From Cenarchaeum sp. (GTDB lineage Archaea > Thermoproteota > Nitrososphaeria > Nitrososphaerales > Nitrosopumilaceae), in contig OZ243037.1 in NCBI GenBank assembly GCA_965212015.1, positions 864,001-928,000 on the forward strand: 64,000 nucleotides of DNA, read 5' to 3'. Positions 11,178-44,890 of the stretch are shown in pieces. Within the stretch, counting starts at the first letter, position 1. Every line of letters begins with the position of its first letter. The position numbers and the translations under genes are program-made. A model generated the notes under the pieces. That model was not told where the DNA came from. It saw nothing but the letters and a program-made list of their open reading frames with translations, and did no database searches.

Positions 11178-11381
11178 TTTGTGACTTTGCTGGCCTGCCC
11201 CATAATTTAATCGATCTGCGTTTCTAGGCATGGTTTATATGACTAGAATTAGTCCTTGCCTTTGCATACGTAACGCAAGAGCGGCGCTTGTGATGAAGTA
11301 TGGTAATGAACCATTTTATGATTCATGGGCCTCCAGTTACGCATACAAAATGAGGGTCTGATCAAGCGATCAAATCTGAAA

Positions 11382-12961
<1,580 letters not shown>

Positions 12962-13073
12962 ACCATCAAATGCAATGCGCCATGAAAGTGGTGTATGAAG
13001 GATGTAGCGGATCCCTCCCTTGGAGGATTTGCAATGATCGTCGTGTATAGTCGTGTAATATGTGGCTGAATAT

Positions 13074-16060
<2,987 letters not shown>

Positions 16061-16570
16061 GCTCAGCCACTTACATAGAGACTATACGCGACGATTCATT
16101 TTTTTTAGACCCCCAGCGGACGCTGTACGGATTCGTACCGTGTCGCGCATGATGCAAAGCTTCAACTGCCACAAACCAGATCAAAACCGCATACAATTGC
16201 AGCCGATTTGTTTGCGTGGCAGGAATCAAATGACTATGATAAACCAACACAAAATCTGAGGGTATTGGGTATTTCCCTATCTATCCTGCCACGGCATTAT
16301 ATTGGCGCAGGTCGTATTTTTGCTTTTTGTACAGCCGGATTTGCCGGCCCGGGCACATGCCCCGTCTGGTTCAGGACACGGTCAAACTATGGGGGCTGTC
16401 CTACCCAGGAAAGCACTATAGATTGAGATCTCTTGTAGTGGTTATTTGTGCGCCCGACTGGCGGGAATTGATTCCAAAATTGCATGCCTTGTTGCCAAAA
16501 AAATATCCAGACGCAATGTCTGTGCACGGCTTTCGCGCCAATGCGGCCGCAGTACGAGCGGTTCGAGATG

Positions 16571-28473: not shown

Positions 28474-28923
28474 CTATGGGCATACCTGTATCTCATCCAG
28501 ACTTGCCCTGTTTATGTGAAAAAACGTGGCCTTTTTTGCTGACATGTCAAATCGTCTCATAAGCTTTCCGATATACGACATGTGATATTTTATTCTGGTC
28601 TTTTTTGCAATGATCTTCCACATCTCATCGGAGGTAACATCTTGATTGTCGGGATGACTCACTACCTTTTCGAGTGATTTCATCGGGATTATCGGCGGTG
28701 CTCCGAATCTGGGACGGGTGGAAAGGCCTTCCAGGCAATCCTCGTCGCAGCGTGTTGTCCATTTTGCAACCCAGCTTGGCGCGCACATCATTTGAATTGC
28801 CGTCTGGCGCTAGGTTATGTTGCAAGATTTGCGCATGTGTACCACTATTATCCGTTCACGTATGTCCGGATCTTTTTCCATGTCTCGCGCATGTCTTAGC
28901 TCATCAATCTGTCGTTGTGTCAT
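28474..28923 (-). mobile_element. IS630-family transposase remnant (N-terminal HTH part, internal stop, no DDE domain)
   Basis: IRERIIVV...(TAG at 28810-28812)...WVAKW...GLSTRPRFGAPP...IKYHMSYIGKLMRRFDMSAKK. Confidence 0.75.
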
Positions 28924-29214
28924 GTGTGTGCTACGAATCGATGATCAATATAGTTTTCGGCCACACGCTTGTTTTAGATCTCGAACTTTGGATTGAGACT
29001 GTATGTTCTGAGTACTGATGACCTGCCTTCTGAGCTGGCTCAAATAGAGCCAGAACAGAGCAGAAAGGCTGCAAGAATTTCTAGGGATGATCTAATTGAT
29101 TACTATCGTAACCGGTTAGATCCCGTGCCTGTAGATCCAAATATCCCTCTTGAGCCTAACCTGTTACCTACTATCTATAGATATAGTAATATTAGGGTTA
29201 ATACAATAACTCTC

Positions 29215-29340
29215 ATGAATTCCATCAAGTGTAAATGTGGACATGATGTAAATCAACATGGTCCTTTTAATAATGGAAATCACATCAATGCTTGTAAGGA
29301 ATGTGATTGTTCAGGCTATAATCCTTCGGATCTACAATAA
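29215..29340 (+). CDS. 41-aa Cys/His zinc-binding microprotein
   Basis: MNSIKCKCGHDVNQH...ACKECDCSGY. Confidence 0.55.
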   Translation: MNSIKCKCGHDVNQHGPFNNGNHINACKECDCSGYNPSDLQ

Positions 29341-29431
29341 AATAAGGATCTAATAAATATTTAGCCTTAACAAAAAATTTGCGACACATTCTCAAACCAA
29401 AATTTGAGATCAATGATTCAAATAGATTGAA

Positions 29432-29513
29432 AATTGATCATCATCATACAATATAGAATTGATCATCATCATACAATATAGAATTGATCATCATCATACA
29501 ATATAGAATTGAT
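29432..29513. repeat. 25-bp tandem repeat x3.3
   Basis: aattgatcatcatcatacaatatag at 29432, 29457, 29482 and partial at 29507. Confidence 0.9.
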
Positions 29514-29627
29514 ATAACAATGAATAGAGTCAAAATATGATGTAAAACTTATCTTTAATCATAACTTAAAATTCACATTTTAGATCTAGACTGTAAAGTT
29601 TATCAAAATATATCAAATATTTTCAAT

Positions 29628-30320
29628 TCAATCTAATAGATAATGATTTTGTTGCAACCATGTTTTTCTTATCTCATAATCAGGCATTATTCTACCTAGC
29701 AGATTCCAAAATGATTGGTCATGGTTTGGAATTTTAAGATGACATAATTCATGTATGATGACATAATCGATGATTTTCCTTGGTGCACGGATTAGTTTCT
29801 GATTGATTGTAAGTGTATCTGACTTACTGATTCCTCCCCATTTTGTATTTAAGGGTTTTATTAAAATCTCAGATGGGAATAATTTAATTAATTTTGAATA
29901 TTTTTTGATCCATTTTTCAAATAATAAAGTAGCTTTTTGTTTTTCCCAATCTAGATATAATTTGCGTATGTTACTACTTGTTGTATTATCTAAACTAGCA
30001 TTAAATATTCCATTCTTTAATTCAAAATGATTAGATGATGATTTGATAATCTTGAGTGTATACCATTTTCCAAGATATGGAATTTTTGATTTATCAGCAT
30101 ATGTGATTTTAGATGTTGTATAATCTTGAATTTCAAGCTGTTTTTTGAAAATCCATCTTGAATGGCTTTGGATCTCATCATGTATGGTTTTTTGACTTTT
30201 TATATCAGATGCCAGTACTTTAACTCCCGATTTACCGACAAGAATCTCTGTTGTATTTCTTTTACGTAATATTATTCTGTAAGGAATTTTTGTCTTTCCA
30301 AAAATTATATAATTCATCAT
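29628..30320 (-). CDS. YgjP/M48-like (DUF45) metallo-hydrolase associated with type I R-M
   Basis: KWG...IDYVIIHELCHLKIPNHDQSFW; start overlaps the hsdR stop (ATGA). Confidence 0.9.
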   Translation of the reverse strand: MMNYIIFGKTKIPYRIILRKRNTTEILVGKSGVKVLASDIKSQKTIHDEIQSHSRWIFKKQLEIQDYTTSKITYADKSKIPYLGKWYTLKIIKSSSNHFELKNGIFNASLDNTTSSNIRKLYLDWEKQKATLLFEKWIKKYSKLIKLFPSEILIKPLNTKWGGISKSDTLTINQKLIRAPRKIIDYVIIHELCHLKIPNHDQSFWNLLGRIMPDYEIRKTWLQQNHYLLD

Positions 30321-33271
30321 TGATTCGCCTTCATCAATTTTACAATTTCTATGGCAAGTGATTGGGTTTTGTCAAAATCTAAACTTTGTTCACGTAGTAT
30401 ATCTTTGATCTTTGCTCGCATCTCTTTTTGTATATTTTCTTTTTCCGGCCAATTACTTACTTGCAATAGTTCTAAATTCTTGGAGATTGTCATGGTTAAT
30501 TCTTTGGATTTTTCATCATCAAATGCGTTTTGAAGACTGCTATATATGGAGAATTGTATTTTGGTCAACCCTTCATCTGATGCTCGTTTACCTTCAGAAA
30601 ATAATTTTTGTAGCAGTTTCTGTAACTGGTTAAATGATTGTGCATCCTCAAACTTTGTATTTTTTAAATTTTCGATGATCTCTTCTAGTCTTTGTTTTAG
30701 TGATTTGTAATATGCAGGATTTGTTGATTCATTTTTTTCTATTACTTTTCGTGCCTTTTTTATAATTATACTTGATCTAGTCTTTACAGAACCATAGGAT
30801 TTGATCAGTTTGATGAAATTTGTATTATCAATCTTGGTAGGAGGAATGAGTTGAATGGATTCTTCAGCACTAATTACATCTTTGATCAATTTTTTTACTT
30901 TTTCGCCTATCTCTTGCAAATTTAGATTTTCATCATAAAAGGCAGTCCTAGCAGCTGCCCTTGTTTTTGCCAAAAATTTCAAGTCATCTTGATATTTAAG
31001 TGCCTCAGGATCCGGCAGCACTAAATCCATGTATTTAGAAAATTCTTTAAAATCGTGTTCAAATGATTCCCTCGTATCTTCAGGGGTCAGGATTTCGATC
31101 AGGGCATCAAGGTCATTTCTATTCATATTAGTAAAATATGACATTGCTTTATCACACCAAATTTTTAATTTTAAATGTGCATCTTCGAATGTTTTTAAAA
31201 TCTGTTTTATCTCGATATTTGCATCTTCATCTATATCATACATTTGATACGCCTCTGCCAAATTCCCAGAGATTCCCCAAAAATCAACAATCATCCCATG
31301 TGTTTTTTTTACTCCATGTGGACGATTTACCCTAGCTATTGCCTGAAGTAGAGTATGTTCCTTAAGCCCTTGATCAAGATACATTGTCTGTAGAATCGGC
31401 GCATCAAATCCTGTAAGTAGCATATCTACTACAATTAGAATCGACAGGGACTCATCCTTTATTGAAAGCTTGAATTTTTCCACATATTGTTCCTTGACTC
31501 TGTCTGTTAATTCATATTTGTCCCAACCATATTTTTTGTCAGTAGGCATAGATGTCATTATGATTCTAGATTCTGGCGCTTCTAGGTCATCAAGTGCTTT
31601 TTTATATAGGACTGCAGCTCCTCTTGATGGCGCCACAATCATTGCTTTAAGACCATTAGGATAGACATGTTTTTCATAGTGATCCACTATTGCTTCTGCC
31701 ACTCTTTTGATTCTGTTAGGTGCAGAAGCTATAGCAGTCTTGTTCGCATATTTTTTCCTTGAAATTTCACGTGTCTTTTCATCAACATTTTTTGTTATTT
31801 CTGCAAATCTTTTTTCAATGGATTCTCCTTGTACATGCATATCACTGAATCTCCCTTCATAGTAAATTGGAAGAGTAGCACCATCTGCCTCCGATTCTGA
31901 AATTTTATAGGTATCAATATAAGTTCCAAAGCTATCCTGAGTTTTATCATTCTTTATTAAAGGTGTTCCAGTATATGCAAAAAATATGGCATTGGGAAGT
32001 GCCGCACGCATTGTGGCATTTGTGAGACCGTATTGTGATCGATGTCCTTCATCCACCAAAACAAAACAGGATTCATCGGACACAGGATGAGGTTTCTCAT
32101 CTTTAAAGAATGGAAATTTAAATACCGTACTCATTATGGTTTTTCCTCTATTGTTTTCTATCATTTCTTTTAGATTGTCCCGATCTTTAGCTCGAACTGG
32201 GGTTGGAAATCCACATGATTTGAAAGTGTTATGAATTTGTTTATCTAGTTGTTTTCTATCTGTTACGATCAACACTGTGGGATTTTCATATAATCGTTTT
32301 AATTTTAATGCCAACCAAAACATAGTAAGTGATTTTCCAGAGCCTTGAGTATGCCAGATCACACCGCCTCTTTCAACCGGAATTTTTCCTGTATCTATCC
32401 TTCGAATTGTTTTTTGTACAGCTCTGAACTGCTGATATTTAGCAATTTTCTTGGTTTTTTCACCTTCTTCTATTTGGAAAACAGTAAAACTTTTTACCAA
32501 TTCCAATAAGTTTTTTTTTGTAAGCATTCCATCGATTAAGATTTCTTGCTGTCGTGATCTATTCTTTTGTTTGATATTTTCTAACGGATATGAATCTTTC
32601 CATTCTCTGTAGTTGTGAGATGATGCAAAGGTTGGAGCATATCTTGCCTTAAGTCCACATGTTGCAACTAGGATTTGTACATAGTAAAATAGACTCTCAT
32701 ATCCTGTTTTAGGCTGCTGATATCGATACAGATTGTTGTTTATCGCCTCACTAAGTGGATTTGATATATATGGTGATTTGCATTCTATTACCACTAATGG
32801 TATTCCATTAACAAATATTACAATATCTGGAAGTATGTCATTTTTGTACCCTTTGAGGAAGTATTGATTTGTTACAAAAAAGTCATTTTTTTCGATCTTT
32901 TCAAAATCAATAATTTTTACAGTACGTGGCTTGTTGCCATCACCAAGGTTTTGCATTACAGTGATTGGTCGTAATCGGCCTGTAGAGAGCCCTATTATTC
33001 TTGCATGTATTATTTCATTTGCGTCAATCGCAATATTGCTATCAAATTTTTTAAATTCTCTTACAACATCGTCAATTCCCTGATCATCGATCCAGGGATT
33101 TAGACGTAATATTGCCTTCTCAAATCTATCAATTAAGAGGGGCTCTAGATCAGACTTGCGTGTTTTGTCCAATTCTGACCTAGTTTTATATTCAAATCCA
33201 AGCTGTTTTAGCTGCTCTATTGCAGGCATTTCTGATTGTTCCTTTTCAGGACCATGTTCTTGTACACTCAT
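30317..33271 (-). CDS. hsdR: type I restriction enzyme R subunit
   Basis: PDIVIFVNGIPLVVIECK nuclease, HTQGSGKS, DEGHRSQ, YTGTP and MLLTGFDAP helicase motifs. Confidence 0.97.
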   Translation of the reverse strand: MSVQEHGPEKEQSEMPAIEQLKQLGFEYKTRSELDKTRKSDLEPLLIDRFEKAILRLNPWIDDQGIDDVVREFKKFDSNIAIDANEIIHARIIGLSTGRLRPITVMQNLGDGNKPRTVKIIDFEKIEKNDFFVTNQYFLKGYKNDILPDIVIFVNGIPLVVIECKSPYISNPLSEAINNNLYRYQQPKTGYESLFYYVQILVATCGLKARYAPTFASSHNYREWKDSYPLENIKQKNRSRQQEILIDGMLTKKNLLELVKSFTVFQIEEGEKTKKIAKYQQFRAVQKTIRRIDTGKIPVERGGVIWHTQGSGKSLTMFWLALKLKRLYENPTVLIVTDRKQLDKQIHNTFKSCGFPTPVRAKDRDNLKEMIENNRGKTIMSTVFKFPFFKDEKPHPVSDESCFVLVDEGHRSQYGLTNATMRAALPNAIFFAYTGTPLIKNDKTQDSFGTYIDTYKISESEADGATLPIYYEGRFSDMHVQGESIEKRFAEITKNVDEKTREISRKKYANKTAIASAPNRIKRVAEAIVDHYEKHVYPNGLKAMIVAPSRGAAVLYKKALDDLEAPESRIIMTSMPTDKKYGWDKYELTDRVKEQYVEKFKLSIKDESLSILIVVDMLLTGFDAPILQTMYLDQGLKEHTLLQAIARVNRPHGVKKTHGMIVDFWGISGNLAEAYQMYDIDEDANIEIKQILKTFEDAHLKLKIWCDKAMSYFTNMNRNDLDALIEILTPEDTRESFEHDFKEFSKYMDLVLPDPEALKYQDDLKFLAKTRAAARTAFYDENLNLQEIGEKVKKLIKDVISAEESIQLIPPTKIDNTNFIKLIKSYGSVKTRSSIIIKKARKVIEKNESTNPAYYKSLKQRLEEIIENLKNTKFEDAQSFNQLQKLLQKLFSEGKRASDEGLTKIQFSIYSSLQNAFDDEKSKELTMTISKNLELLQVSNWPEKENIQKEMRAKIKDILREQSLDFDKTQSLAIEIVKLMKANQ

Positions 33272-34458
33272 GTCTTTACACGTATCTTCCCAGTTAGAAG
33301 GTTTTGCATAAGTCCTTTTTTTAAACGTTCGAGTTTTTCTTTATATACTTGATTTTTTTGAATGTACGCATCAACTCCTGACAGAATTGATGCAATTTTT
33401 TGTTGTTCTTTAATGTTTTTAGGAACTTTTATTTTAAAAGAATGTAGATGATTTCTATTTAATGTAGGAACACTAGTTCCTGAATTGAATTTTTCGTAAT
33501 TTAAATTTTGAAGTAAATAAAAAACAAATTTTGGAAATGATGAACGAAATTCTTTTACATATAATGACGTATTCAATGGCCAATAATTTTCTACAACATA
33601 ATATGTTTTTCCTAAAGTGCCACTTCGTCCAATTATTACTCCAGGACCATTAGATTTGTATTTATTATGGTATCCAACAACACCATTTGAACCTATTACT
33701 GGAATTTTACCAATTTTACGTTCATGTTTTGGTAAATCATGACCTCTTTGAAGAAAAATTATAGAATCTAACCTAGAAAATTTAATCAATGAATTTTTAA
33801 TTCCTTTTGTGAGCAGCTGCTGCATCAGACCTTTTTTCAGCCTCTCGGTCTTTTCGATTATTCCTTGTGTGGATTCGATCAATGCATCAACATTAGAAAG
33901 AATTGATGCAATTTTTTGTTGTTCTGTAATATTGGGAATCGGAAGAATAATTTTTTTAACACTATTTAAATCTAAATGTAACACTGTGGTTCCAGCACTA
34001 AAAGAAAATGAACTTTTGTGAAAAAATTCACTAGAAAATAAATAAAATAGAAATTTTTTATATATTAATTTGGTGTTTATTTTACAATGAGCTGTATCCA
34101 TAGAATGAAAAACTTTCTTTATATTATGAAAATTTGGTATTATTAATGGAAATCCAATTACATTACCATCACGAGTTACATCAGTGATTGAGATCAGGAT
34201 TTCGTTTGTAGCTATTGAACATTTATTTGTCTTGCCAGTGAAATATATGATACCTTTATCTACAAATCCTCCTAATTTTTGAAAGCAATTGAGATTAATG
34301 AGAATATTGCCAATTTTTTCTGAATTGATTTCTTGGCTGCTGTAGCTTATTCCTCGAATTAATTCCATTAATTGATCGAGTTGAATAGTGTCATATTCCT
34401 CTGGGATTTTAATTTCCAAAAATCGTGGTTTAAGAACTAATTTCTTGAATTTTGCCAT
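33268..34458 (-). CDS. hsdS: type I R-M specificity subunit (two TRDs)
   Basis: Two TRDs, each followed by EQQKIASILS...LKKGLMQxLLT; stop overlaps the hsdR start. Confidence 0.95.
   Translation of the reverse strand: MAKFKKLVLKPRFLEIKIPEEYDTIQLDQLMELIRGISYSSQEINSEKIGNILINLNCFQKLGGFVDKGIIYFTGKTNKCSIATNEILISITDVTRDGNVIGFPLIIPNFHNIKKVFHSMDTAHCKINTKLIYKKFLFYLFSSEFFHKSSFSFSAGTTVLHLDLNSVKKIILPIPNITEQQKIASILSNVDALIESTQGIIEKTERLKKGLMQQLLTKGIKNSLIKFSRLDSIIFLQRGHDLPKHERKIGKIPVIGSNGVVGYHNKYKSNGPGVIIGRSGTLGKTYYVVENYWPLNTSLYVKEFRSSFPKFVFYLLQNLNYEKFNSGTSVPTLNRNHLHSFKIKVPKNIKEQQKIASILSGVDAYIQKNQVYKEKLERLKKGLMQNLLTGKIRVKT
33368..33402 (-). repeat. 35-bp inverted repeat, copy A (putative inversion site)
   Basis: Exact reverse complement of 36530-36564. 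Confidence 0.9.
33883..33918 (-). repeat. degenerate third copy (B) of the repeat, in the central conserved region of hsdS
   Basis: 20 bp identical to copies A and C, plus the GTTGATGCA arm; different 6-bp spacer (TTTCTA). Confidence 0.75.
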
Positions 34459-34486
34459 ATTTCCACCTTGTAGTCAGCACAACCCC

Positions 34487-34493
34487 TATAAAT
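34487..34493. promoter_or_regulatory. putative bidirectional TATA box for hsdM (+) and hsdS (-)
   Basis: TATAAAT lies 22 bp before the hsdM ATG (34515); the reverse TTTATA lies 28 bp before the hsdS ATG (34458). Confidence 0.55.
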
Positions 34494-34514
34494 CAGTTAA
34501 AAATATAATGGTTG

Positions 34515-36005
34515 ATGGCCGAAAAGCTGACCTTTAATAAGCTAAAAAATCACTATTGGGACGCGTCTGATATCTTAAGAGGCGGTCTTGATGCGAGTGA
34601 ATATCGTCAGCCAATAATGACACTATTATTTCTAAAAAGATTAAATGATCAATTTCAGGAAAAAGCTGAAAAGCTGGAAAAAGAAGGTAAACCAAAAAAA
34701 ATAGCTTATGAAGATACTGACTACCACACATTTTTTGTGCCAAAAGCATCAAGATGGAATGTATTATCAAAGGCTTTTGAAAATATTGGTGAAAAAATAG
34801 ACAAAGCTTCTGTTGCATTAGAGCGCGCCAATCATTCACAGCTTGAAGGCGTTTTAACCAATATATCATATAATGATAAGAAAAAATATTCTGATGAAGA
34901 TCTTTTAAAACTTGTAAGTCATTTCAGTAAATACAGATTAAGAAATTCAGATATTGAAAATGAAGATATTTTTGGTCAGGCTTATGAATATCTCTTAGAG
35001 CAATTTGCTGATTCAGCTGGGAAAAAAGCTGGTGAATTTTTTACCCCACGAGAAGTGGTAGAATTATTGGTAAAGATTTTGGCACCTACAGAAAAAATGT
35101 CGATTTGTGATCCTACATGTGGTTCAGGTGGGATGTTAATCTGGTCTAGGCAATATGTACAAGAACACAAAGGAAATCCAAAAAATCTTTCATTGTATGG
35201 ACAAGAGAGAAATTTTGGAAATTATGGGATGTGTAAAATGAATATGATCCTGCACGGTATTGAAAATTTTAAAATTAAACAAGGAAATACCTTATCAAAT
35301 CCACTTTTTGTAAAAGGTGGAAAATTACAAGAATTTGACAGAGTTGTAGCTAATTTTCCTTTTAGTATGGATTGGAATAATACACAAGCTGCACAAGATA
35401 GATATAATAGATTTGAATTTGGAATTCCTCCATCTAAAGGAAAAGCAGATTTTGCATTCATTCAACACATGTATTCATCACTTAACAAGAAAGGTAAAGC
35501 CACAATTGTCTGCTCACAAGGTATTTTATTTAGAGGAAATATAGAAGGTAAGATTCGTGAAAATTTTATTAAAAATGATATAATTGAAGCAATAATTGCA
35601 TTACCGGCTAATTTGTTTTTTGGGACAGGAATTCCAGCATGTGTTTTAGTTCTAAATAAAGCAAAACCTGAGAAAAGAAAAAACAAGATTTTATTCATTT
35701 ATGCTGCAAAAGATTTTCTTGATTTAAAAAAACGTGATATTCTTAGAGATGAAGATATTAAAAAGATAATTTCATCATATGAAAAATTCAAGGATATAGA
35801 AAAATATTGCCATATCGCTGATTTAGATGAAATAAAAGAAAATGAATTTAATCTAAATGTGCCAAGATATGTGGATATTTCTGAGCCAGAAGAACAAATT
35901 GATGTCCAGGATGCATATAATGAATTAAAAAAATCATTTAAAGAACAAAATATACTTAAAAAATCTATAGAGGTAGATCTAAAGGAATTGAATATTAAAC
36001 TTTGA
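34515..36005 (+). CDS. hsdM: type I R-M N6-adenine methyltransferase subunit
   Basis: GEFFTPREVV, DPTCGSGG, VANFPF and LPANLFFGTGIP motifs. Confidence 0.97.
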   Translation: MAEKLTFNKLKNHYWDASDILRGGLDASEYRQPIMTLLFLKRLNDQFQEKAEKLEKEGKPKKIAYEDTDYHTFFVPKASRWNVLSKAFENIGEKIDKASVALERANHSQLEGVLTNISYNDKKKYSDEDLLKLVSHFSKYRLRNSDIENEDIFGQAYEYLLEQFADSAGKKAGEFFTPREVVELLVKILAPTEKMSICDPTCGSGGMLIWSRQYVQEHKGNPKNLSLYGQERNFGNYGMCKMNMILHGIENFKIKQGNTLSNPLFVKGGKLQEFDRVVANFPFSMDWNNTQAAQDRYNRFEFGIPPSKGKADFAFIQHMYSSLNKKGKATIVCSQGILFRGNIEGKIRENFIKNDIIEAIIALPANLFFGTGIPACVLVLNKAKPEKRKNKILFIYAAKDFLDLKKRDILRDEDIKKIISSYEKFKDIEKYCHIADLDEIKENEFNLNVPRYVDISEPEEQIDVQDAYNELKKSFKEQNILKKSIEVDLKELNIKL

Positions 36006-36682
36006 ATGATATTTTAGAACCTAAAGCAAAATATAAGAAAGTACAAAACTTTTTTAAAAAATATTTTATTATACCAATTGATTGGGAATATCCAAAATTT
36101 GCTTCAGTAATATATGTAAATCCAAAAACTAAAATATTTTCAAAAACTGCACCATATGTTCCAATGGATGCTGTAAACACTAATTGTAGAATGGTAGATT
36201 ATTATGAGAATAGGAATGTATCAGATCATTCAAATTTATCAAAATTTATAGAACATGATATATTATTTGCTAGAATTACTCCTAGTACTGAAAATGGAAA
36301 AACTGCTTTCATTGAGAATTTTAAACATGTTGGTATTGCATCATCTGAATTAACTATTTTACGACCTACAAAAAAAATTATTCCACAATATTTATATTAT
36401 TACATAAAATCACACAGGATCAGATCATTTGCTATTTCACAAATGCTGGGCACCACAAATCGCCAGAGAGTTCCAGAATATGTTTTTGAAAAAGATCTGA
36501 ATTTTGAATTGCCATCTATCAAAGAACAGCAAAAAATTGCATCAATTCTGTCAGGAGTTGATGCATATAAAAAAATTATATATATCATAATATTGAATAT
36601 TTTATATATAAAATTAGCAATATATTTGATAATGTTCACTGCTGATGTATTTAGATTTGGATCTAATCAAATACATTATTAA
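36002..36682 (+). CDS. hsdS: half (single-TRD) HsdS cassette with non-HsdS tail
   Basis: One TRD (DILFARITPSTENGK...GTTNRQRV) plus EQQKIASILSGVDAY, then abrupt loss of HsdS similarity; TTG start overlaps the hsdM stop. Confidence 0.85.
   Translation: MNDILEPKAKYKKVQNFFKKYFIIPIDWEYPKFASVIYVNPKTKIFSKTAPYVPMDAVNTNCRMVDYYENRNVSDHSNLSKFIEHDILFARITPSTENGKTAFIENFKHVGIASSELTILRPTKKIIPQYLYYYIKSHRIRSFAISQMLGTTNRQRVPEYVFEKDLNFELPSIKEQQKIASILSGVDAYKKIIYIIILNILYIKLAIYLIMFTADVFRFGSNQIHY
36530..36564 (+). repeat. 35-bp inverted repeat, copy C (putative inversion site)
   Basis: caaaaaattgcatcaattctgtcaggagttgatgc, the reverse complement of 33368-33402. Confidence 0.9.
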
Positions 36683-36750
36683 ATCTACTTACAAAAAACA
36701 CCATATTCATAAACACATATGTAAAAATAGTTATCATACAAGCAACATAC

Positions 36751-37662
36751 ATGATAATAGCCAAGCAGAGAAGCACCAAATTATTTGAGGAATCCATAAA
36801 ATCAAAATATACAAAAAGAAACTGCAATAATAATCTAAGACAATTTCAGAAATTCGTCATCAGATATACATCAAAAGATCTGTCAGATATCAATGTTGAA
36901 AATCTACAGAATTTACTGGAGGACTATATCATCGAGCTAAAACATACTTCACATCCAAACTCCATACCGTCAAAATTCCAGGGAATAAAGCATTTTTGTG
37001 TAATGAACCGAATCAATCTCAACTGGGACATCATACACAAGATGTTCCCCCAGAAACAAAAAACACAAAATTTGAGATCCTATACCTCAAAAGAGGTCAA
37101 AAGACTATTAGTCGGCACAAAAAGCGTCCGAAATCAAGCCTTGGTTCATTTTCTAGCATCAACCGGCGCAAGAATCGGCGTATTTGACCACGAATTATTA
37201 ATCAAACATATGAAAAGGATGCCCAGCAAATGTTGTGCAGTCAAACTCTACGCCGGAGACATGGAAGAATATTGGTCATTTCTCACTCCTCAGGCAACGA
37301 AGATACTGGATTTGTATCACGAGCAACGTAAGTTAGGCGGAGAATCATTATGTGATGAAACACCCATTTTTGCGACAAGCTTCGGGCAACTTGGATGGAA
37401 TGGTGCAAGATCTGTCGTATATCGAGCCATATCAAAAAGTGGCATTGACAGAAACAAGCGGAATAACCGTTATGACGTACAGGCAGACCATGGCCTCAGA
37501 AAAAGATTCAACACCATACTAAAATTGGACAATTCTATAAACTATAACATTGCAGAAAAGCTTATGGGCCACAAGAACGGTCTAGATGGAATATACCTGA
37601 CACCCACAATTGACGAATTATTTGCAGAATTCAAAATAGTCGCACACAAATTGGAGATCTGA
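36751..37662 (+). CDS. tyrosine recombinase/integrase
   Basis: Catalytic motifs ASTGARIG (R), HGLRKRF (HxxR), LMGH and GIY (Y). Confidence 0.92.
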   Translation: MIIAKQRSTKLFEESIKSKYTKRNCNNNLRQFQKFVIRYTSKDLSDINVENLQNLLEDYIIELKHTSHPNSIPSKFQGIKHFCVMNRINLNWDIIHKMFPQKQKTQNLRSYTSKEVKRLLVGTKSVRNQALVHFLASTGARIGVFDHELLIKHMKRMPSKCCAVKLYAGDMEEYWSFLTPQATKILDLYHEQRKLGGESLCDETPIFATSFGQLGWNGARSVVYRAISKSGIDRNKRNNRYDVQADHGLRKRFNTILKLDNSINYNIAEKLMGHKNGLDGIYLTPTIDELFAEFKIVAHKLEI

Positions 37663-37831
37663 GTGATTATTCTTGTGTGCCCAAATGGATAATAATCCCA
37701 AATGGCGATTAGTCAGCAAATAGCATCAAATCTCCTACAATGATCGGCAATTCCAACAATCAATCTAACTTATCAATGAAAGACAGCGATAGCTTTATAG
37801 AATCCTCACCGCTAGTATCATAATTCCAATC

Positions 37832-40135
37832 TTGACAATTCCAGTATGGCAGATGATTCGTGAGGCAATAGATGCCCTTGGAGGTACTGCAACCAATAGT
37901 AAAATTCGGGATTACATAAATTCCAAGTATAAAGGAGTCAATCAAGGAACTATTAATTGCCAAATTATCTCTTGTACCGTAAACAGGGCATCCAGGGTAC
38001 GTTTTCCAAAAAATTTCAAACCCAGAAAAGCAGACACAGAATATGATTTTTTGTATTCTGTAGGGAGAAGCAAAGTGATTCTTTACAAGCCAGAGATACA
38101 TGGAGATTACGAGATAGCAATACATGATGGAAAACCAAAAGTTTTGACCAACGGAGGAATCATTGATAACAGCATAGAATGCGCTCTCTTAGAATTTATT
38201 CAAAACGAGATGGAAATGGATACAAATTATCAACCCATAATCATAAAGACTTTGTTGGAAAGTGGGAATGAAAACAGATTTGAGTCCGACAAGGAATTAA
38301 TCCAAGAAAAACTTCAGGAATTAAACTTTGAGAAGCAATTTGATTTTGATAATATGTTGGAATCCATAAGAAAAGATCTAAATGGATTTGTTACCTTTGG
38401 TAACAGAATTATAGGTTTACATTTTGATCAATTTTCATCCAAAGACATACCGGAATGTTTGAAAGCATGTGGACAAAAAATCGCACAATGGCATATGGAT
38501 AATTATCAAATAGACATGTGGTCAATGCTGCCTGGCAGAACAAGGGAAAATTATCCATTTTTGGATGAATTTTTACAAACCAATTCAATTGGTGTCGGAT
38601 GGAATCGAATCAAGGATATTTCTGATCTCACAAAAAACCAAATACTCAAAGAGTTTAATAGACGATATCCTGAGGAAGACAGTGCAAGCTTTAGCGATTT
38701 TACAAGAATAGACAAAAAAGATCTGATTGTACTGACCAGAGGACAAAAGGAGATTGTAGACTATGGGATTGTCACCGGTGATTACCACTATGAATCCAAA
38801 AGCCCCTCATATACACACAGAAAGAAGATTGTCTGGCTAAAACGAGGTCCTGTCTTGCCAAAAGAGTTACCAAACCCCACTTTGGAAGGATTTATGCGCA
38901 CATGCATTAAAGTCTTAAAGCGGAGAGAAGAGCTGATTCAGGTATTGCTTGAAAAACACACAGTTAATAATATAGTTCCTGCCGATAATTATACAGTGGA
39001 GCAAAAGCTAGAAAAAATACTAGATCTGAAAAAACAGTTGATTCTGTACGGCCCTCCTGGAACTGGAAAAACATACCATGCCATGCGTCTTGCACAGCAT
39101 TTAATCAGAAATAACTCTTCGAGACAGGCTCTGACTTTTAGATCCGCCACAATACAGGTTCTCAAAGAAACTGGTAAACCTATGCATTACAAAGACATTT
39201 ATCAAAAAATCAAAGATCAGAATTTGATTCAAAGTGCAGGTCAGACGCCAAGAGATACCATGCGAGCAATAATATACAGGGATATAAAACACAAGGGATC
39301 AGATTCAATCTTTAAAAAAACTGACAACGGAACATATGAATTAAATCAAGATTCACAAGAATATGAAATCAAATTCAGTGATGAAATTCCAGATGATCAG
39401 CCAAAATTCATTCGTAGCGTGACATTTCACCAATCATATTCCTACGAGGATTTTATCGAGGGCATAAGGCCTACTGCAATCAATAATCAGATATCCTACG
39501 ATCTAGAAGACGGTATTTTCAAACAGATTTCCGAGGAAGCTCGGGCCGATCCCTTGAACAAATATGTGCTGGTAATAGACGAAATCAATAGAGGAAACAT
39601 CTCCAAGATCTTCGGCGAGCTGATTACATCGATTGAAAAGGACAAACGGGAAAACCACACACTACAACTGGCCTACTCGAAGGAAGAATTTACAGTCCCA
39701 AAAAACCTATTCATCATAGGTACGATGAACACTGCAGATCGCAGCCTGATTCAAATTGACACAGCACTGAGGCGACGATTCTCATTTCATGAATTAATGC
39801 CAGAACCTGAATTATTGAGTCAAATAATCGAGGGGATTCCTGTGAGGGATATTTTGACCATGCTCAATCAGCGAATCAAACAGGAGGGACTACGTGAGCG
39901 GCAAATAGGTCATTCATATTTCATGAGCATATCAGATCTAGATGGACTACAGTTTACCTTTGCCCACGACATTGTGCCACTGCTCCAGGATTATTTCTTT
40001 GATGACTATAAAAAACTGGAAAATGACATTCTAAGCAGTGATTTTGTTGATTCCGACAATATGAAAATCAAAACGGACTGGCATGATGATCCGCAAAAAT
40101 TCCTAGAAATTCTAAAAAATATTCTCCAACAATGA
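37832..40135 (+). CDS. mcrB: McrB-family GTPase with multiple DNA-reader domains
   Basis: GPPGTGKT, TFHQSYSYEDFIEG, IDEINRGN and MNTADRS motifs. Confidence 0.93.
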   Translation: MTIPVWQMIREAIDALGGTATNSKIRDYINSKYKGVNQGTINCQIISCTVNRASRVRFPKNFKPRKADTEYDFLYSVGRSKVILYKPEIHGDYEIAIHDGKPKVLTNGGIIDNSIECALLEFIQNEMEMDTNYQPIIIKTLLESGNENRFESDKELIQEKLQELNFEKQFDFDNMLESIRKDLNGFVTFGNRIIGLHFDQFSSKDIPECLKACGQKIAQWHMDNYQIDMWSMLPGRTRENYPFLDEFLQTNSIGVGWNRIKDISDLTKNQILKEFNRRYPEEDSASFSDFTRIDKKDLIVLTRGQKEIVDYGIVTGDYHYESKSPSYTHRKKIVWLKRGPVLPKELPNPTLEGFMRTCIKVLKRREELIQVLLEKHTVNNIVPADNYTVEQKLEKILDLKKQLILYGPPGTGKTYHAMRLAQHLIRNNSSRQALTFRSATIQVLKETGKPMHYKDIYQKIKDQNLIQSAGQTPRDTMRAIIYRDIKHKGSDSIFKKTDNGTYELNQDSQEYEIKFSDEIPDDQPKFIRSVTFHQSYSYEDFIEGIRPTAINNQISYDLEDGIFKQISEEARADPLNKYVLVIDEINRGNISKIFGELITSIEKDKRENHTLQLAYSKEEFTVPKNLFIIGTMNTADRSLIQIDTALRRRFSFHELMPEPELLSQIIEGIPVRDILTMLNQRIKQEGLRERQIGHSYFMSISDLDGLQFTFAHDIVPLLQDYFFDDYKKLENDILSSDFVDSDNMKIKTDWHDDPQKFLEILKNILQQ

Positions 40136-41403
40136 CTGTTATCACTTTAAAAGAATACGAAACATTCCCATCTAATCAAGGAATATCTGATCCAGTGTCT
40201 TTAAAACATATTCGCGGATTGAAGCTTGAGGAACAAGATAAAAAATTAAAAAAAGAACTACAAAAGAATATACTTTCCATCAATGTCGATCCTTTTCAGG
40301 AAGGATTATTGCAGTTTAAGGCATATAGCCACATAGGTGTGGCACAATTTACAAATTTCTCCATCTCTATAACACCTAAATTCTCAGAAATTGGAAAATT
40401 GATTGAACTGATTGACTATGTCTATGATCTTGATCTTGAAATATTCCCAGAAAGTGAATCCAAATTTGAAGGAGAAAGACACATGATATCGGAGATTATC
40501 ATAACCACATTCGTAAAGAAATGCCAAAAGCTGATCCGGCAAGGACTCTTCAAATCATATAATAATCACGAGGATGATCTACCGTTTCTGCGAGGAAAAC
40601 TGCTTGTATCACAGCAAATACGTAATCAGGCCAATACTAAGCTCCAATTTTCATGTAAATATGATGAATTCGAATATAATAATCTGGACAATCAGATCAT
40701 TTTATACTGTTTGAGACGGATCTATTATCTGACCATAAATGAGAAAAGAAAAAAAGAAATCAGAATATTGATTCAAGAATTTTCAGATCTAGTCGATGAT
40801 ATTGGAATTTCATCAGATGACTTTGCTAAAATCAATTACAATCAAATGAATAGCCACTATAAAAAAATCCATGAATTATGTCGTCTGATCATAGGAAATA
40901 TTCAAATTACTAATTTTTACAAACAGAAATTACGCTTTATCAATTCATTTTTTATAGACATGAATATTGTATTTGAAAAATTCATCTTCAAGCTATTTGC
41001 AGAATTTTATCCATTGCATGCCAAAGATCAAGAGAGTGATATTGCTTGGAAGACGGAGAATGAAGGAAAGACTATCCAATCTATTACAGATATTTTAATT
41101 TTTGAAAAGGACCAAAATACCGTACATACTATAATAGATACAAAATATAAAACTGATCTTACAAATGCCGATCGATATCAATTAGAGCATTATATACACG
41201 ATCATAAGAAAACAGAAGCATATGTAATATTGCCCGAATTTAAAGATGCAAAATATAACAGCTATATTGCAACAAGACAGGATATTCAAATCAAAGTCAG
41301 ACATGTCAATATAGACAAAGTATTAGAATATATCAATCTCAAAGATCCAAGATCGAAAAAAGACAAAATCAAGGAATTATTGATAGAAGTTATTCCACTG
41401 TAG
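40132..41403 (+). CDS. mcrC: McrC-family nuclease subunit
   Basis: Coupled to mcrB; RGKL, FIDMNIVFEKF, TDILI...IIDTKYK and DRYQL motifs. Confidence 0.92.
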   Translation: MTVITLKEYETFPSNQGISDPVSLKHIRGLKLEEQDKKLKKELQKNILSINVDPFQEGLLQFKAYSHIGVAQFTNFSISITPKFSEIGKLIELIDYVYDLDLEIFPESESKFEGERHMISEIIITTFVKKCQKLIRQGLFKSYNNHEDDLPFLRGKLLVSQQIRNQANTKLQFSCKYDEFEYNNLDNQIILYCLRRIYYLTINEKRKKEIRILIQEFSDLVDDIGISSDDFAKINYNQMNSHYKKIHELCRLIIGNIQITNFYKQKLRFINSFFIDMNIVFEKFIFKLFAEFYPLHAKDQESDIAWKTENEGKTIQSITDILIFEKDQNTVHTIIDTKYKTDLTNADRYQLEHYIHDHKKTEAYVILPEFKDAKYNSYIATRQDIQIKVRHVNIDKVLEYINLKDPRSKKDKIKELLIEVIPL

Positions 41404-42070
41404 AATTCTGCATATCAGATTAAGATCATTCAAAGAACAGATGACCGAAAATTCAACCAAATATCGCAATAGATCGGATAAACAGTGGATTCCTGCCAGT
41501 ATGGCATTTCATTATCCCAACAATGACTTGTCCTCGGGTTTGGGATTTCCTGCCATGTATTCCTTGAAAAGATCGAGCCATCATTTTTTCAGATCAAAGC
41601 GGATGTGCGATCTGAATCAAATTCTTTAATTTGTTTGTTGATAAATTTTTCCACCCATGTGTGATCGGTTTTGTTCTCTTTTTTCATAAGCCTCTGGATT
41701 TTTCTCCAAATGGACCATGATGATCCTGTCCATCCCCAGTATATAATCTCAGGTCTGCCACTCATCAGGTTTTGTGTGGGTCACGAATATTCGCTAGTAC
41801 GCCCAAAAGGCTGTTTTTCGTGATTTTGAGCCAAATCCTCGAAAACACCCACCTGCCCACCAGAGCACAGAATAAGTAGGTTCAAAAGGAATATTTGGCA
41901 CTGTAAGCGTGGAATCTAGCCGTTTATGCCTCCAGCAACCACAATATTTTTATTATGAATGTGTGTATTATAGTCATGGTGAGAATGGATTTGGGCGGCG
42001 GCGGAGTTTCTTAACATAATCGGATATCATTATAACCACCTCTTAAAATAGCCCAACATGTACTGTAAAT

Positions 42071-43276
42071 GTGTTGTCTGAACTCCTTTCTACATTTCGT
42101 ACTCTAATTGTGTGCACTCTAATAATACTTGCAAGTGGACTCGTACTAACGTTCTATTCCCATATGCAAGAAAGCAAAGATTTCTATACCGATCTAGCAC
42201 ATTCAGTTGGACTTACGCTAATATCTGCAAGTGTGGTAGGTGTTGTAGCCGAAGTTTTTATCATGTCGTTATTTACAAAAAAAGTGTTAAAACTGGAGGA
42301 ATCTTTTCTTAACAGAGTCATTCCATCAATAATTAACACAACGCATGAATGGATAATTAGTAAAAGTAAAACTATACCGATAGATAAAACTGCATTGTAT
42401 AATCTCATCCGTATTGGTGTATTGCAATGGTTTATGAAAGAAAATTTTGAAAAGATAGGAATATCATCAAATAAAATAGCAGAATTATACCAAGATCTTC
42501 AATTATCTGAATTCAAAGAACCGATAATAATAGATTTTTCAACCACACTAAGATATGAGGGAAAAATTAATGAAGAGATATCCGGCAGGAAAGGATTGAT
42601 TGATTTACATACTCAGACACAATATACGGCATTCAATTCTTCTAATTCAGAAACTCGATATGTGAATACCAATGGTACTATATTACTACATGCTTTTGAC
42701 ATATTTGGAATTTTTCCAAAAAATGAAAAGGAAAAACAGGAATTTGTTAATAGTTTAAAACTCAAATTGAGCATTACAATAGATGATGTTAAGATAGAAT
42801 ACGAGACAATTCCAATATATCTAGATTTGAAAGATATATCAAGATTGGAAGAAAAAAAACCATCCGAAATTATTCAGATCATAGAGAACAAATTAGATAC
42901 AAAAATAAAAGATAATACAACTTATTTATTCTATAGTTTTAGAGGTAATGAACTAGATGATATCAAACGATTCATCTATTCAGCATTTTGTACATATACA
43001 ATAAAACCTCAAGAACGTATATTGGTTTCATATGATATTCATGAATCCTTCGCCGAGAACGATTATCTCTTTCACACCATGAAGAGTATTACTAAAGGTG
43101 TTAGTGTAAATTTGATTGGATTTGAAGATAGATTTGACACTACAATTCTAAAATATTTCCTAAATGACAAAGAAGATACTATAAAACAAACAACTAATAT
43201 CCTTACAACTTCCTCATTAATGCTTCCTAAAAGCATCATAATTATTTCTTGGCAAAAGAAACTGGAATCTTTGTAA
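42071..43276 (+). CDS. orphan protein with two N-terminal TM helices
   Basis: 401-aa AT-rich ORF; two hydrophobic segments followed by a soluble domain. Confidence 0.75.
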   Translation: MLSELLSTFRTLIVCTLIILASGLVLTFYSHMQESKDFYTDLAHSVGLTLISASVVGVVAEVFIMSLFTKKVLKLEESFLNRVIPSIINTTHEWIISKSKTIPIDKTALYNLIRIGVLQWFMKENFEKIGISSNKIAELYQDLQLSEFKEPIIIDFSTTLRYEGKINEEISGRKGLIDLHTQTQYTAFNSSNSETRYVNTNGTILLHAFDIFGIFPKNEKEKQEFVNSLKLKLSITIDDVKIEYETIPIYLDLKDISRLEEKKPSEIIQIIENKLDTKIKDNTTYLFYSFRGNELDDIKRFIYSAFCTYTIKPQERILVSYDIHESFAENDYLFHTMKSITKGVSVNLIGFEDRFDTTILKYFLNDKEDTIKQTTNILTTSSLMLPKSIIIISWQKKLESL

Positions 43277-43468
43277 AGGATATGGAATATTAGAATCTAT
43301 ATGTATTGCTTTTGTCATTTAGTCAAATATATATCAGTATCAATGATTTATCAAACCTCGTTATATGAACAGACATTTACATACATCGATAAAAAATATG
43401 ATTAAAATATGCACGTTAATACATCAATATCCATCACACAGGTATCGCAGACAAGTACAATAATCAAT

Positions 43469-44890
43469 TCATGCAGTAGGGTCCAACAGCCGTCCCATGA
43501 ACAGTATCATGCCGCTCTCATCATCCTGTATTATGAACAAAAACGGGTGATTCGCAGTAAAGTCCGGGGGCACAGACGTTACGGACGTTATCGTGGTTAC
43601 CGCAGCAGCTTCCGTACCCTCCTCGTTTACATCAACGAACGCGTCCTGGGTTGCCTTGCCCACATACAGGTTTCTTATGTCAGTCGTGTCTGCAATTGAC
43701 AAAAGATTCGCATAATATTCATCAAAGACATCAGTCATTCCAAGATTTTTCAGGAATTCGCCGAGATTATATTTTGTCTCCATGGTAAACTTTGGCATGC
43801 TTACGGCCAATTCGGCATCAGACATGTTCTGGTTCCACTGCGATATCATCTCTGAAGATATGGACTCCTCAAGTGCGGCAATACCGTCCCGATCACTTGG
43901 AAGAGCCACCAGCATGGAGAGTCTGTCCCCCTTGTACGGCAGCTTTAGCACCTGCACACCATCATGCCGAGTGTGATTGAATATTCCCGTAACATGCATA
44001 AAATCCGCATTCACGCTTTCCGCGCCGCTTGTCCAAAAGCCGGCCTGTTGCGTGGCCTCTGTAGGAAACTGCGTCACCCATGTCCCCTTGAAGTATATTG
44101 CATTTGTGATTACCATGGCGGTAAGATGATTCACATCTTCGGAGCCGAGTACCGTCTTTATCTTTTGGTTGGTGTTATCAGATGCCCATGTGTTGATCTT
44201 TTTTACGCCATCATCCATGAAATCCACCGACTCTACGCTAGAAAGATACGTTCCGCGCGCGACATCAAGGTACGACTCGTACGGTGAAAACCAGTCTGCA
44301 AGCCATAACGCGTTTGCCATGGCCAGTGTCGCATGCGGGTCGTCCCGGTTGAGGGATTCCATGGCACGCGCCGTGTGATTGTGGCGCACATCGGCATCAG
44401 ATTCAAAGCCAAACACGTCCTGCATCTGCTGTGCAGTATTTCCCCTTGCCCCCTCGTACAGCACGGAAAATGCCACATACATTCCAGAAGGTGAAAAGAA
44501 CAGATTGGCATCGTTATCAGATATCTGCCTGTAAAAATCCACTGCAAAAATATTGTTTGCAGTTGTAATATTTTGCGGGATTGTAAAGTTTGCCTGTGGA
44601 TTGTCTTTTGGAATCGTGGAATGATCCTGTGGGCCTGGCACACCGTCAATTACATCTGCCAAATCCTGCAAAACAATCTCCCATCCGCGCGATTCCAGTT
44701 TCTTTGCCGTATTCTCGTACACGCAGGCAGGTTTTCCGGACTGTGACTGCACCAGTGTTTTGTCGGCACTGCATTGGATCTCATTTAACGGGGTGCCGTT
44801 TTCTAATTGTTGTAATGGAGTGGATTCTGCAAACACGGGAGTCAAAACCACGATTGACAGCAGTGCCAATACGCATGCCAGATACATCAC
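43469..44890 (-). CDS. secreted serpin with thaumarchaeal N-terminal Cys domain
   Basis: NLFFSP, NAIYFKGTW, EEGTEAAA hinge, NHPFLFII and LFMGR motifs; signal peptide. Confidence 0.95.
   Translation of the reverse strand: MMYLACVLALLSIVVLTPVFAESTPLQQLENGTPLNEIQCSADKTLVQSQSGKPACVYENTAKKLESRGWEIVLQDLADVIDGVPGPQDHSTIPKDNPQANFTIPQNITTANNIFAVDFYRQISDNDANLFFSPSGMYVAFSVLYEGARGNTAQQMQDVFGFESDADVRHNHTARAMESLNRDDPHATLAMANALWLADWFSPYESYLDVARGTYLSSVESVDFMDDGVKKINTWASDNTNQKIKTVLGSEDVNHLTAMVITNAIYFKGTWVTQFPTEATQQAGFWTSGAESVNADFMHVTGIFNHTRHDGVQVLKLPYKGDRLSMLVALPSDRDGIAALEESISSEMISQWNQNMSDAELAVSMPKFTMETKYNLGEFLKNLGMTDVFDEYYANLLSIADTTDIRNLYVGKATQDAFVDVNEEGTEAAAVTTITSVTSVPPDFTANHPFLFIIQDDESGMILFMGRLLDPTA

Follow-up and report, generated by a model that had tools for sequence, protein, structure and literature searches.

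The stretch of 64,000 nucleotides of contig OZ243037.1 analysed here (the window, to which all coordinates refer) carries a complete Type I restriction-modification (R-M) system at 29628-36682, which is divided into two divergent units and is followed by the gene of a tyrosine recombinase. The host is an archaeon, because the 16S-23S rRNA operon in the window (11449-16065) is archaeal, and its genome is represented by one contig of 1.76 Mb with a completeness of 99.74%. The locus is probably an inverton of the specificity gene hsdS that is driven by the recombinase. Its genes and features are listed below along the forward strand, TRD standing for target recognition domain.

29628-30320, minus strand: ygjP-like metallopeptidase gene, the last in the hsdS-hsdR-ygjP unit (Pfam YgjP-like, E 2.9e-47).
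30317-33271, minus strand: hsdR, Type I restriction subunit of 984 amino acids (aa), with Pfam HSDR_N, SWI2_SNF2, T1R_D3-like and T1RH-like_C.
33268-34458, minus strand: full hsdS, 396 aa (Pfam Methylase_S, E 1.6e-30, two stretches). In the alignment of its conserved parts it comprises TRD1 (about 33932-34458), a central conserved region, TRD2 (about 33415-33881), a C-terminal conserved region and a C-terminal helix (33268-33364).
33365-33414, no strand: inverted-repeat arm in the C-terminal conserved region of hsdS, with a perfect core at 33368-33402 and a dyad at 33368-33393.
33403-36529, no strand: predicted invertible segment of 3127 bp, bounded by the 35-nt cores and containing TRD2, the central region, TRD1, the divergent intergenic region, hsdM and TRD3.
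33882-33931, no strand: repeat copy in the central conserved region of hsdS, with a perfect core of 20 nt (33899-33918 with 36530-36549) and a dyad at 33884-33909 that has a different spacer.
34459-34514, no strand: divergent intergenic region of 56 bp between hsdS and hsdM, inside the predicted invertible segment.
34512-36005, plus strand: hsdM, which encodes the Type I methyltransferase subunit of 497 aa, with an ATG just after the start, at 34515 (Pfam HsdM_N and N6_Mtase, the latter with E 2.1e-111).
36002-36682, plus strand: truncated hsdS', 226 aa (Pfam Methylase_S, E 1.1e-8, one stretch). It consists of TRD3 (36002-36517), a conserved region up to ...SGVDAY and a hydrophobic tail of 37 aa (36568-36682), which replaces the C-terminal helix (a coiled coil).
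36518-36567, no strand: inverted-repeat arm in hsdS', with a perfect core at 36530-36564 and a dyad at 36539-36564, whose spacer is the same as that of the dyad at 33368-33393.
36751-37662, plus strand: tyrosine recombinase of 303 aa, the candidate invertase, outside the invertible segment.

The domains of HsdR, HsdM and a two-TRD HsdS were all detected with Pfam, and HsdM also exceeds the cut-off of the NCBIfam hsdM profile, with 278.5 bits. On the minus strand hsdS, hsdR and ygjP each overlap the next gene by 4 nt, the hsdS stop and the hsdR start sharing the letters ATGA, and on the plus strand the hsdM stop and the TTG start of hsdS' share TTGA. Both couplings are read directly from the sequence, as they had been in the original prediction, which also placed hsdM correctly in a unit that diverges from hsdS-hsdR and contains the half-size hsdS'. 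The 56-bp intergenic region is presumed to be a bidirectional promoter and contains putative TATA-like boxes.

Inverted repeats, dyad sites and the recombinase

The arm in the C-terminal region of hsdS and the arm in hsdS' are 94% complementary over 50 nt, and a repeat search finds a perfect core of 35 nt within them. The perfect 35-bp inverted repeat noticed earlier at 33368-33402 and 36530-36564 is thus confirmed and extended. The 35-mer has two matches in the window when up to 3 mismatches are allowed, and none of 100 dinucleotide shuffles has any match; a perfect inverted repeat of this length is far beyond chance. The arm in the central region of hsdS (33882-33931 against 36517-36566) is 84% complementary over 50 nt. 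All three copies encode the conserved HsdS motif ...EQQKIASILS(G/N)VDA..., which occurs in the central and C-terminal regions of full hsdS and, in hsdS', where its single TRD ends. In the alignment, the HsdS likeness of hsdS' ends right after ...SGVDAY, that is, at the end of the repeat, exactly where the half hsdS had been said to lose its HsdS character.

Each of the three conserved regions contains a dyad of 26 nt, GCATCAA-N12-TTGATGC, starting at 33368, 33884 and 36539. The 12-nt spacer of the dyad is identical in the two arms that share the 35-nt core and different in the central copy. Tyrosine recombinases require matching overlap regions. As judged from the sequences, the dyad is a candidate for the core site of the recombinase, and the spacer may set the partner of each site. 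Because the spacer is shared by the C-terminal pair and differs in the central copy, a switch with two states, A and B, is predicted here.

The recombinase gene starts 69 bp past the stop of hsdS', and the original prediction of a tyrosine recombinase shortly past the repeat is borne out by the fold and the catalytic residues of its product. The protein has no match among PDB sequences at E <= 0.1. Its AlphaFold2 model, built with 24 homologues, has a predicted local distance difference test score (pLDDT) of 86.5 and matches 70 PDB structures in Foldseek at E <= 0.001. XerA (5hxy, E 2.5e-9), Cre, lambda Int, XerH, XerD and IntI are among the top matches, all with a probability of 1.00 and over both domains. 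Residues R141, R250, H274 and Y282 are invariant in the 24 homologues, of which at least 90% also have H247; the catalytic roles of these five residues are presumed from the order of the motifs (R, H-x-x-R, H/W, Y). By its modelled fold and its motifs the protein is an intact member of the tyrosine recombinase superfamily and belongs to a distant clade, not to XerA itself. The genome has no other close copy of it, two further matches having identities of 28% and 25%. The protein is the candidate for the invertase that would act on the dyad sites.

Relatives of the recombinase and their loci

Relatives of the recombinase were collected from one genome per species, at 28-77% identity and with some matches partial, and 41 loci encode one. 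Forty of the loci are labelled Nitrosopumilus, Nitrosopumilaceae, Thaumarchaeota, Nitrososphaerota, Nitrososphaerales, Cenarchaeum or Nitrosotalea; the remaining one, a 3-kb contig, is labelled Hyphomicrobiaceae. On this sequence sample, the clade is found almost only in metagenome-assembled genomes of Nitrosopumilaceae.

HsdS-like open reading frames (ORFs) were called with hidden Markov models (HMMs) built from Pfam-confirmed ORFs. Such an ORF lies no more than 4 kb from the recombinase in 20 of the 41 loci; among the 10 relatives at 56% identity or less, L044 alone has one within this distance. Inverted repeats are found in opposed hsdS copies in 14 of the 22 loci checked, one repeat arm lying in unannotated DNA in L025, L030 and L054, and the repeats are 50-739 nt long across L015, L025, L027, L033 and L054. 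The recombinase is situated between the hsdS copies in eight loci (L019, L027, L032, L033, L034, L039, L040 and L044). In five others (L015, L024, L025, L030 and L054) it is hsdM, or hsdM together with hsdR, that lies between the repeats, and the recombinase is outside, as in the window. The layout with hsdM in the cassette is thus recurrent in the lineage. The Type I systems of these loci fall into two families, a window-like one with HsdM 55-65% identical and another with HsdM 26-28% identical and HsdR of the EcoEI_R_C type. None of the 41 loci contains a near-identical copy of the low-GC island in which the locus of the window is embedded (see below), the best DNA identity being about 73%.

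With one mismatch at most, the dyad occurs in 19 of the 20 hsdS-bearing recombinase loci, in one of the 21 without hsdS (L038, which carries an hsdS fragment) and in none of four hsdM loci without a recombinase. In L059 the protein motif is kept (...IASVLSNVDS...) and the DNA is not the dyad. An alignment of eight loci shows a conserved dyad region with divergent flanks. In L033 and L039 central sites match central sites, and C-terminal sites C-terminal ones, by their spacers. A loose form of the pattern, GMATCAA-N12-TTGATKC, matches in 59 of 201 genomes of the family, versus 5 for the reversed control. The matches are mostly single sites with unrelated spacers, and among those listed, spacers of the hsdS type occur only in G000, G017 and G192; the loose pattern is too unspecific, and the sample of 201 genomes too poor in such loci, to gauge co-occurrence.

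Genes of other kinds are also found in the loci of the relatives. Paralogues of the TATA-binding protein (PF00352) adjoin the recombinase or are start/stop-coupled to hsdS (L017:1470-2009, L019:4537-5094, L024:7197-7736, L026:7300-7899 and 11316-12005, L028:6750-7334 and L030:10403-10942; also in L036, L045 and L053). They were detected by Pfam in 6 of 16 loci and by a custom HMM in 9 of 41, and none is found in the window. HicA and HicB-like genes lie beside the recombinase in L019 (6470-6784) and L027 (8925-9176). In six relatives (L033, L039, L038, L019, L040 and L020) the start of a conserved short ORF (MSSTIQKKTYTIII...), putatively HicB-like, follows the dyad downstream of the silent hsdS'. 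A single ORF in L020 (6420-7505) contains both Phage_integrase (residues 87-224) and Methylase_S (226-315) and may be a fusion or a recombination scar. In three Nitrosopumilus loci (L015, L025 and L029) the recombinase stands beside the same flank with AhpC, biotin carboxyl carrier and biotin carboxylase; L029 has no Type I genes at this flank, and the shared flank points to a recurrent insertion spot.

Predicted inversion, its alternatives and the surrounding island

In the proposed mechanism, the recombinase would pair the identical, opposed sites at 33368-33402 in full hsdS and at 36530-36564 in hsdS' and would invert the 3.1 kb that carry hsdM, the presumed promoters and all three TRDs. 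State A, the assembled one, would consist of the units hsdS(TRD1-TRD2-helix)-hsdR-ygjP and hsdM-hsdS'(TRD3-tail), with the specificity given by TRD1 and TRD2. State B, the inverted one, would form the operon hsdM-hsdS(TRD3-helix, 220 aa)-hsdR-ygjP, and the two-TRD gene would take the tail. The half-size S subunit of state B would act as a dimer on a different, symmetric target. We infer current inversion, with the recombinase as its agent and the dyad as its site, and likewise the recognition attributed to each state.

Inversion at the 35-nt cores was carried out in silico. One strand then reads hsdM, an hsdS of 220 aa with TRD3 and the C-terminal helix, hsdR and ygjP, the short hsdS retaining its overlap with hsdR, and the opposite strand contains a TRD1-TRD2 gene of 402 aa with the hydrophobic tail. 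Inversion at the central core gives hsdM, a TRD3-TRD2 hsdS of 392 aa, hsdR and ygjP, together with a TRD1-tail gene of 230 aa. Every frame is open after either inversion. The earlier claims that inversion rebuilds hsdM-hsdS-hsdR-ygjP, that the third TRD gains the C-terminal helix in a product of about 220 aa and that the two-TRD gene gets the tail are all reproduced in silico.

The 220-aa product of state B has natural counterparts, because half-size HsdS proteins with the helix exist in the databases. Four relatives of hsdS' (P0006, P0009, P0010 and P0013) are 217-231 aa long and have a TRD3-like domain of 61-65% identity and a full C-terminal helix that ends in ...LLTGxxRV(K)x. The hydrophobic tail after ...GVDA is also present in P0002, P0003 and P0024. 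Its recurrence in three proteins suggests that the truncated end of hsdS' is a conserved design, a 'silent end', rather than a one-off accident. At the DNA level, seven aligned recombinase loci diverge from the window downstream of the dyad, similar tails being found in the three database proteins only. A truncated HsdS with altered specificity is also reported for NgoAV (PMC7394358; here and below, statements cited by PMC number refer to the available parts of the papers).

The closest HsdM relatives in metagenome contigs, those of L059 (70% identity) and L061 (64%), are encoded in colinear hsdM-hsdS-hsdR, which is followed by ygjP in L059. None of the four loci with hsdM relatives in metagenome contigs has a recombinase or repeats, and the DNA stretches of L059 and L061 that were examined contain no recombinase homologue and no inverted repeat of at least 20 nt. 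Because these two loci are colinear, the assembled arrangement is best read as an inverted derivative of an hsdM-hsdS-hsdR(-ygjP) operon, the stop-start overlaps of hsdM with hsdS' and of hsdS with hsdR being the expected remains of the inversion.

Several observations weigh against a switch that is at work today. Two sequencing runs of one study, X1 and X2, contain the locus as k=31 contigs. The contigs end at every repeat (33376-33397, 33896-33901 and 36535-36559), so that the orientation is not readable from them; among the joints listed, none links opposite strands at the repeats. The exact 35-mer has no match in metagenome contigs. Among 27 relatives of hsdS' from a collection of 5.8 billion protein clusters there is no product of state B or of a third state, C, and the window's own protein is the only one to exceed 74% identity when more than 18% of the query is covered. 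The orientation of the recombinase relative to hsdM is the same in all five window-like relatives (L019, L031, L033, L039 and L044), unlike the expectation for free, unbiased flipping. In 21 of the 41 recombinase loci there is no hsdS within 4 kb, so that the recombinase family is not tied to hsdS. The recombinase of the window itself scores below the cut-offs of Pfam Phage_integrase (E 5.6e-4, 20.2 bits against a gathering threshold of 27.1) and of NCBIfam XerA_Arch (E 1.5e-12, 47.6 bits against 220). The dyad overlaps conserved codons in AT-rich genomes, and part of its conservation may for this reason reflect protein constraint and codon bias. State B, moreover, depends on a predicted half-size S subunit.

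The comparison of orientation in related genomes, which the original prediction had proposed as a check, gives a divided answer. The fixed orientation of the recombinase in the five window-like relatives speaks against free, unbiased flipping. Between species, however, blocks adjoining the repeats occur in both orientations relative to the recombinase: 686 nt at 93% identity in L030 and L054, 2.7 kb at 79% in L015 and L024, and 1.7 kb at 80% in L015 and L028. Thus, the geometry of the predicted invertible locus stands in every detail, whereas its phase variation is not borne out by any read or assembly with the other orientation, the k=31 contigs breaking at the repeats. A further X1 contig, of a depth of only 2.16, joins 36701 to 33896 with one letter between; position 33896, at which the main contig starts as well, is part of the central dyad's spacer.

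The main rival of the inverton, in itself unlikely, is a fossil: one past inversion between the hsdS helices, homologous or site-specific, would have split a colinear operon and would now be fixed, and the recombinase would serve integration or resolution. Such a history would agree with the lack of a second orientation in the contigs, in the 35-mer search and in the protein collection, with the recombinase orientation that is fixed in five of five window-like relatives, and with the 21 recombinase loci that have no hsdS nearby, several of the loci being among transposases. Krupovic et al. 2019 have described thaumarchaeal elements with Type I R-M, an M48 peptidase and XerC/D-like integrases (PMC6563490), and the present locus lies inside a low-GC island. 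The recombinase, however, is in the middle of this island, of which about 7.5 kb lie to the left of it and 5-7 kb to the right. An integrase at the end of an element and the direct repeats attL and attR are not what is found here: no direct repeats flank the island, and the best end-to-end matches are direct repeats of 10 nt and one inverted match of 22 nt at 86%. A fossil also leaves unaccounted for the perfect 35-nt repeat and the identical spacer, both kept despite unrelated flanks, as well as the association of the clade with repeat-bearing opposed hsdS pairs (14 of 22 loci) and with the dyad (19 of 20 hsdS-bearing loci).

A three-way shufflon is improbable. In it, the central and the C-terminal regions would both recombine with the arm in hsdS', which would give the combinations TRD1/TRD2, TRD3 alone and TRD3/TRD2. 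The complementarity of 84% over 50 nt between the central region and the hsdS' arm and the in-frame 392-aa hsdS that central inversion places after hsdM would allow such a state, but the perfect core is only 20 nt long. Likewise, L033 and L039 have separate central and C-terminal repeat pairs, but partner sites share their spacers in these two loci, and the central dyad of the window has a spacer different from that of hsdS', which makes a third state via the central repeat unlikely. In favour of a third state, the X1 contigs also break at 33896-33901, where the repeats of the reference, with 20 and 27 nt, are too short for k=31 to explain a break; other organisms in the sample may, however, be its source.

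That the 3.1-kb segment was misoriented at the repeat during assembly, the true locus being colinear hsdM-hsdS-hsdR-ygjP, is very improbable, because, although the X1 and X2 contigs leave the assembled orientation unconfirmed and assemblies frequently get hsdS inversion variants wrong (Huang et al. 2020, PMC7672463), an assembly that yields a single, nearly complete contig is not likely to have been misled by a repeat of 35-50 nt, and the other orientation would still hold the repeats, the truncated copy and the recombinase, so that the inverton reading stands in either case.

The reading of the locus as a recombinase-driven hsdS inverton can be widened to its relatives, tentatively and with slightly more doubt than confidence. 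Nitrosopumilaceae, which are ammonia oxidisers with sponge-associated kin, would own lineage-specific Type I R-M shufflons and an XerA-like tyrosine invertase clade of their own. The site would be a dyad of 26-28 nt in the codons of the conserved HsdS helix (...IASILSGVDA...), the spacer would decide which helices pair, and the C-terminal helix would move between competing hsdS bodies; several loci, that of the window included, would also flip hsdM and its promoter. If active, these systems would give the first phase-variable methylomes in the phylum and, to our knowledge, the first demonstrated in any archaeon, and they would be spreading between genera on low-GC defence islands. With the locus and about 14 relatives, Type I specificity switching would extend to archaea that oxidise ammonia and abound in oceans and sponges. 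With an active switch, slow-growing archaeal populations would hedge their restriction specificity against viruses and their methylomes would be heterogeneous. The defined recombinase clade and the candidate 26-nt site are open to direct testing.

The island that surrounds the locus contains a second set of defence genes, which lies outside the switch.

About 29200-43600, no strand: low-GC island of about 14.4 kb (32.8% GC versus 52.3% in the rest of the window), holding the entire defence cluster.
37832-40135, plus strand: mcrB-like gene (Pfam AAA_5, HARE-HTH and DUF7669), in the island and outside the switch.
40132-41403, plus strand: mcrC gene (Pfam McrBC), in the island and outside the switch.

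The McrB-like protein of 767 aa has DUF7669 and HARE-HTH N-terminal of AAA_5. Directly to the right of the island there are two adjoining serpin genes (43469-44890 and 45094-46416; Pfam Serpin, E 1e-110 and 4e-113). Just within the left end of the island, at about 29433-29510, a 25-nt unit (TTGATCATCATCATACAATATAGAA) is present in three tandem copies. About 60 nt at the left edge itself (29108-29168) have 24 matches scattered through the genome at 73-100% identity, the stretch itself included, and a partial inverted copy of 22 nt at 41877-41898. Many X1 and X2 contigs end or branch at this stretch, perhaps a repeat dispersed in the genome or else a target site. One X1 contig runs from 42025 back into 29128 at a depth of 37, the island having about 640; at the joint, 27 intervening letters resemble a diverged form of 29101-29127, and the shorter side is only 33 letters long. 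The joint could mean that the island also exists as a circle or in tandem, or that another strain carries a related element. In X1, the left flank (28500-29033) has a summed depth of about 6100, mostly from a variant rich in single-nucleotide polymorphisms, and the island (29568-43985) has about 480-820; in X2, the depth of the left flank is about 1980 and that of the island 0-13. The island seems to belong to a minority strain.

Comparison with known systems

In bacteria, the switching of Type I specificity by a recombinase has been studied extensively as a cause of heterogeneity in epigenetic state and in defence. The inversion of hsdS is established in several of them (PMC4948785, PMC7672463, PMC7394358), in agreement with the original prediction. 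Three features by which Huang et al. 2020 recognise such invertons are also found in the window: a Type I locus with two or more hsdS genes, a pair of inverted repeats in hsdS coding DNA, and a homologue of an invertase no more than 2 kb from an R-M gene.

The SpnIII/cod (ivr) locus of Streptococcus pneumoniae, with its recombinase PsrA/CreX, shares with the present locus the partial hsdS copies, the inverted repeats within hsdS and the tyrosine recombinase encoded at the locus (PMC4948785, PMC7672463). Inversion in SpnIII swaps TRDs and some of the products are truncated (PMC4948785, PMC7672463), and the same is expected here. The hsdM gene of SpnIII is treated as non-invertible in the design of primers for the polymerase chain reaction (PMC7672463), whereas here hsdM and the divergent intergenic region are inside the segment. 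Inversion would therefore also rewire the operons, unlike in SpnIII. In addition, the recombinase is outside the segment here, the host is an archaeon, and the inversion is predicted, whereas in S. pneumoniae it has been demonstrated by experiment.

In Mycoplasma pulmonis, opposed hsdS genes flank other hsd genes, which thus lie in invertible DNA, like here. The hsdS inversions at its hsd1 and hsd2 loci are made by a tyrosine recombinase, HvsR, and yield S subunits that are either variant or inactive (PMC4948785). The gene of HvsR lies at a distance from the loci on which it acts (PMC7672463), whereas the recombinase of the window is adjacent to its presumed target.

Among archaea, Huang et al. 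2020 predicted invertase-positive epigenetic invertons in Euryarchaeota, 4 loci from REBASE and 11 from NCBI, mostly of clade 2, the TvrR-like one (PMC7672463). The loci of this clade mostly have truncated HsdS and ON/OFF switching (PMC7672463), which resembles the helix/tail toggle proposed here. The phylum is different, the relatives of the present locus being Nitrosopumilaceae, and the word 'Thaumarchaeota' does not occur in that paper (PMC7672463). According to Li et al. 2016, such systems exist in many archaeal species (PMC4948785). In the available text of Milman et al. 2023, archaea were not scanned (PMC9881135); that of Chanin et al. gives 12 invertons in 42 archaeal long-read sets and names no hsdS case (PMC10028968); and the word 'archaea' is absent from two papers of Atack et al. 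2020. The literature search, which covered main texts, found among the papers listed no report of an hsdS inverton in Nitrosopumilus or Thaumarchaeota. It also found no characterised archaeal case, in keeping with the original prediction, but the novelty claimed there for archaea is reduced by the bioinformatic listings, which in the available texts are all from Euryarchaeota (PMC7672463).

The closest resemblance within the phylum is to the islands of Thaumarchaeota described by Krupovic et al. 2019, which share HsdM, HsdS and HsdR, an M48 (YgjP-like) peptidase and tyrosine recombinases (PMC6563490). In their arCOG table the S subunits (11) outnumber the M subunits (9) (PMC6563490). The recombinases are read there as integrases, and the string 'invers' has no occurrence in the available text (PMC6563490), whereas here the recombinase is central in the island and abuts a repeat-bearing hsdS. 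The mechanism proposed for the window is of a known kind, in a phylum for which no report of it was found; what is new is the lineage-specific recombinase clade together with its candidate site.

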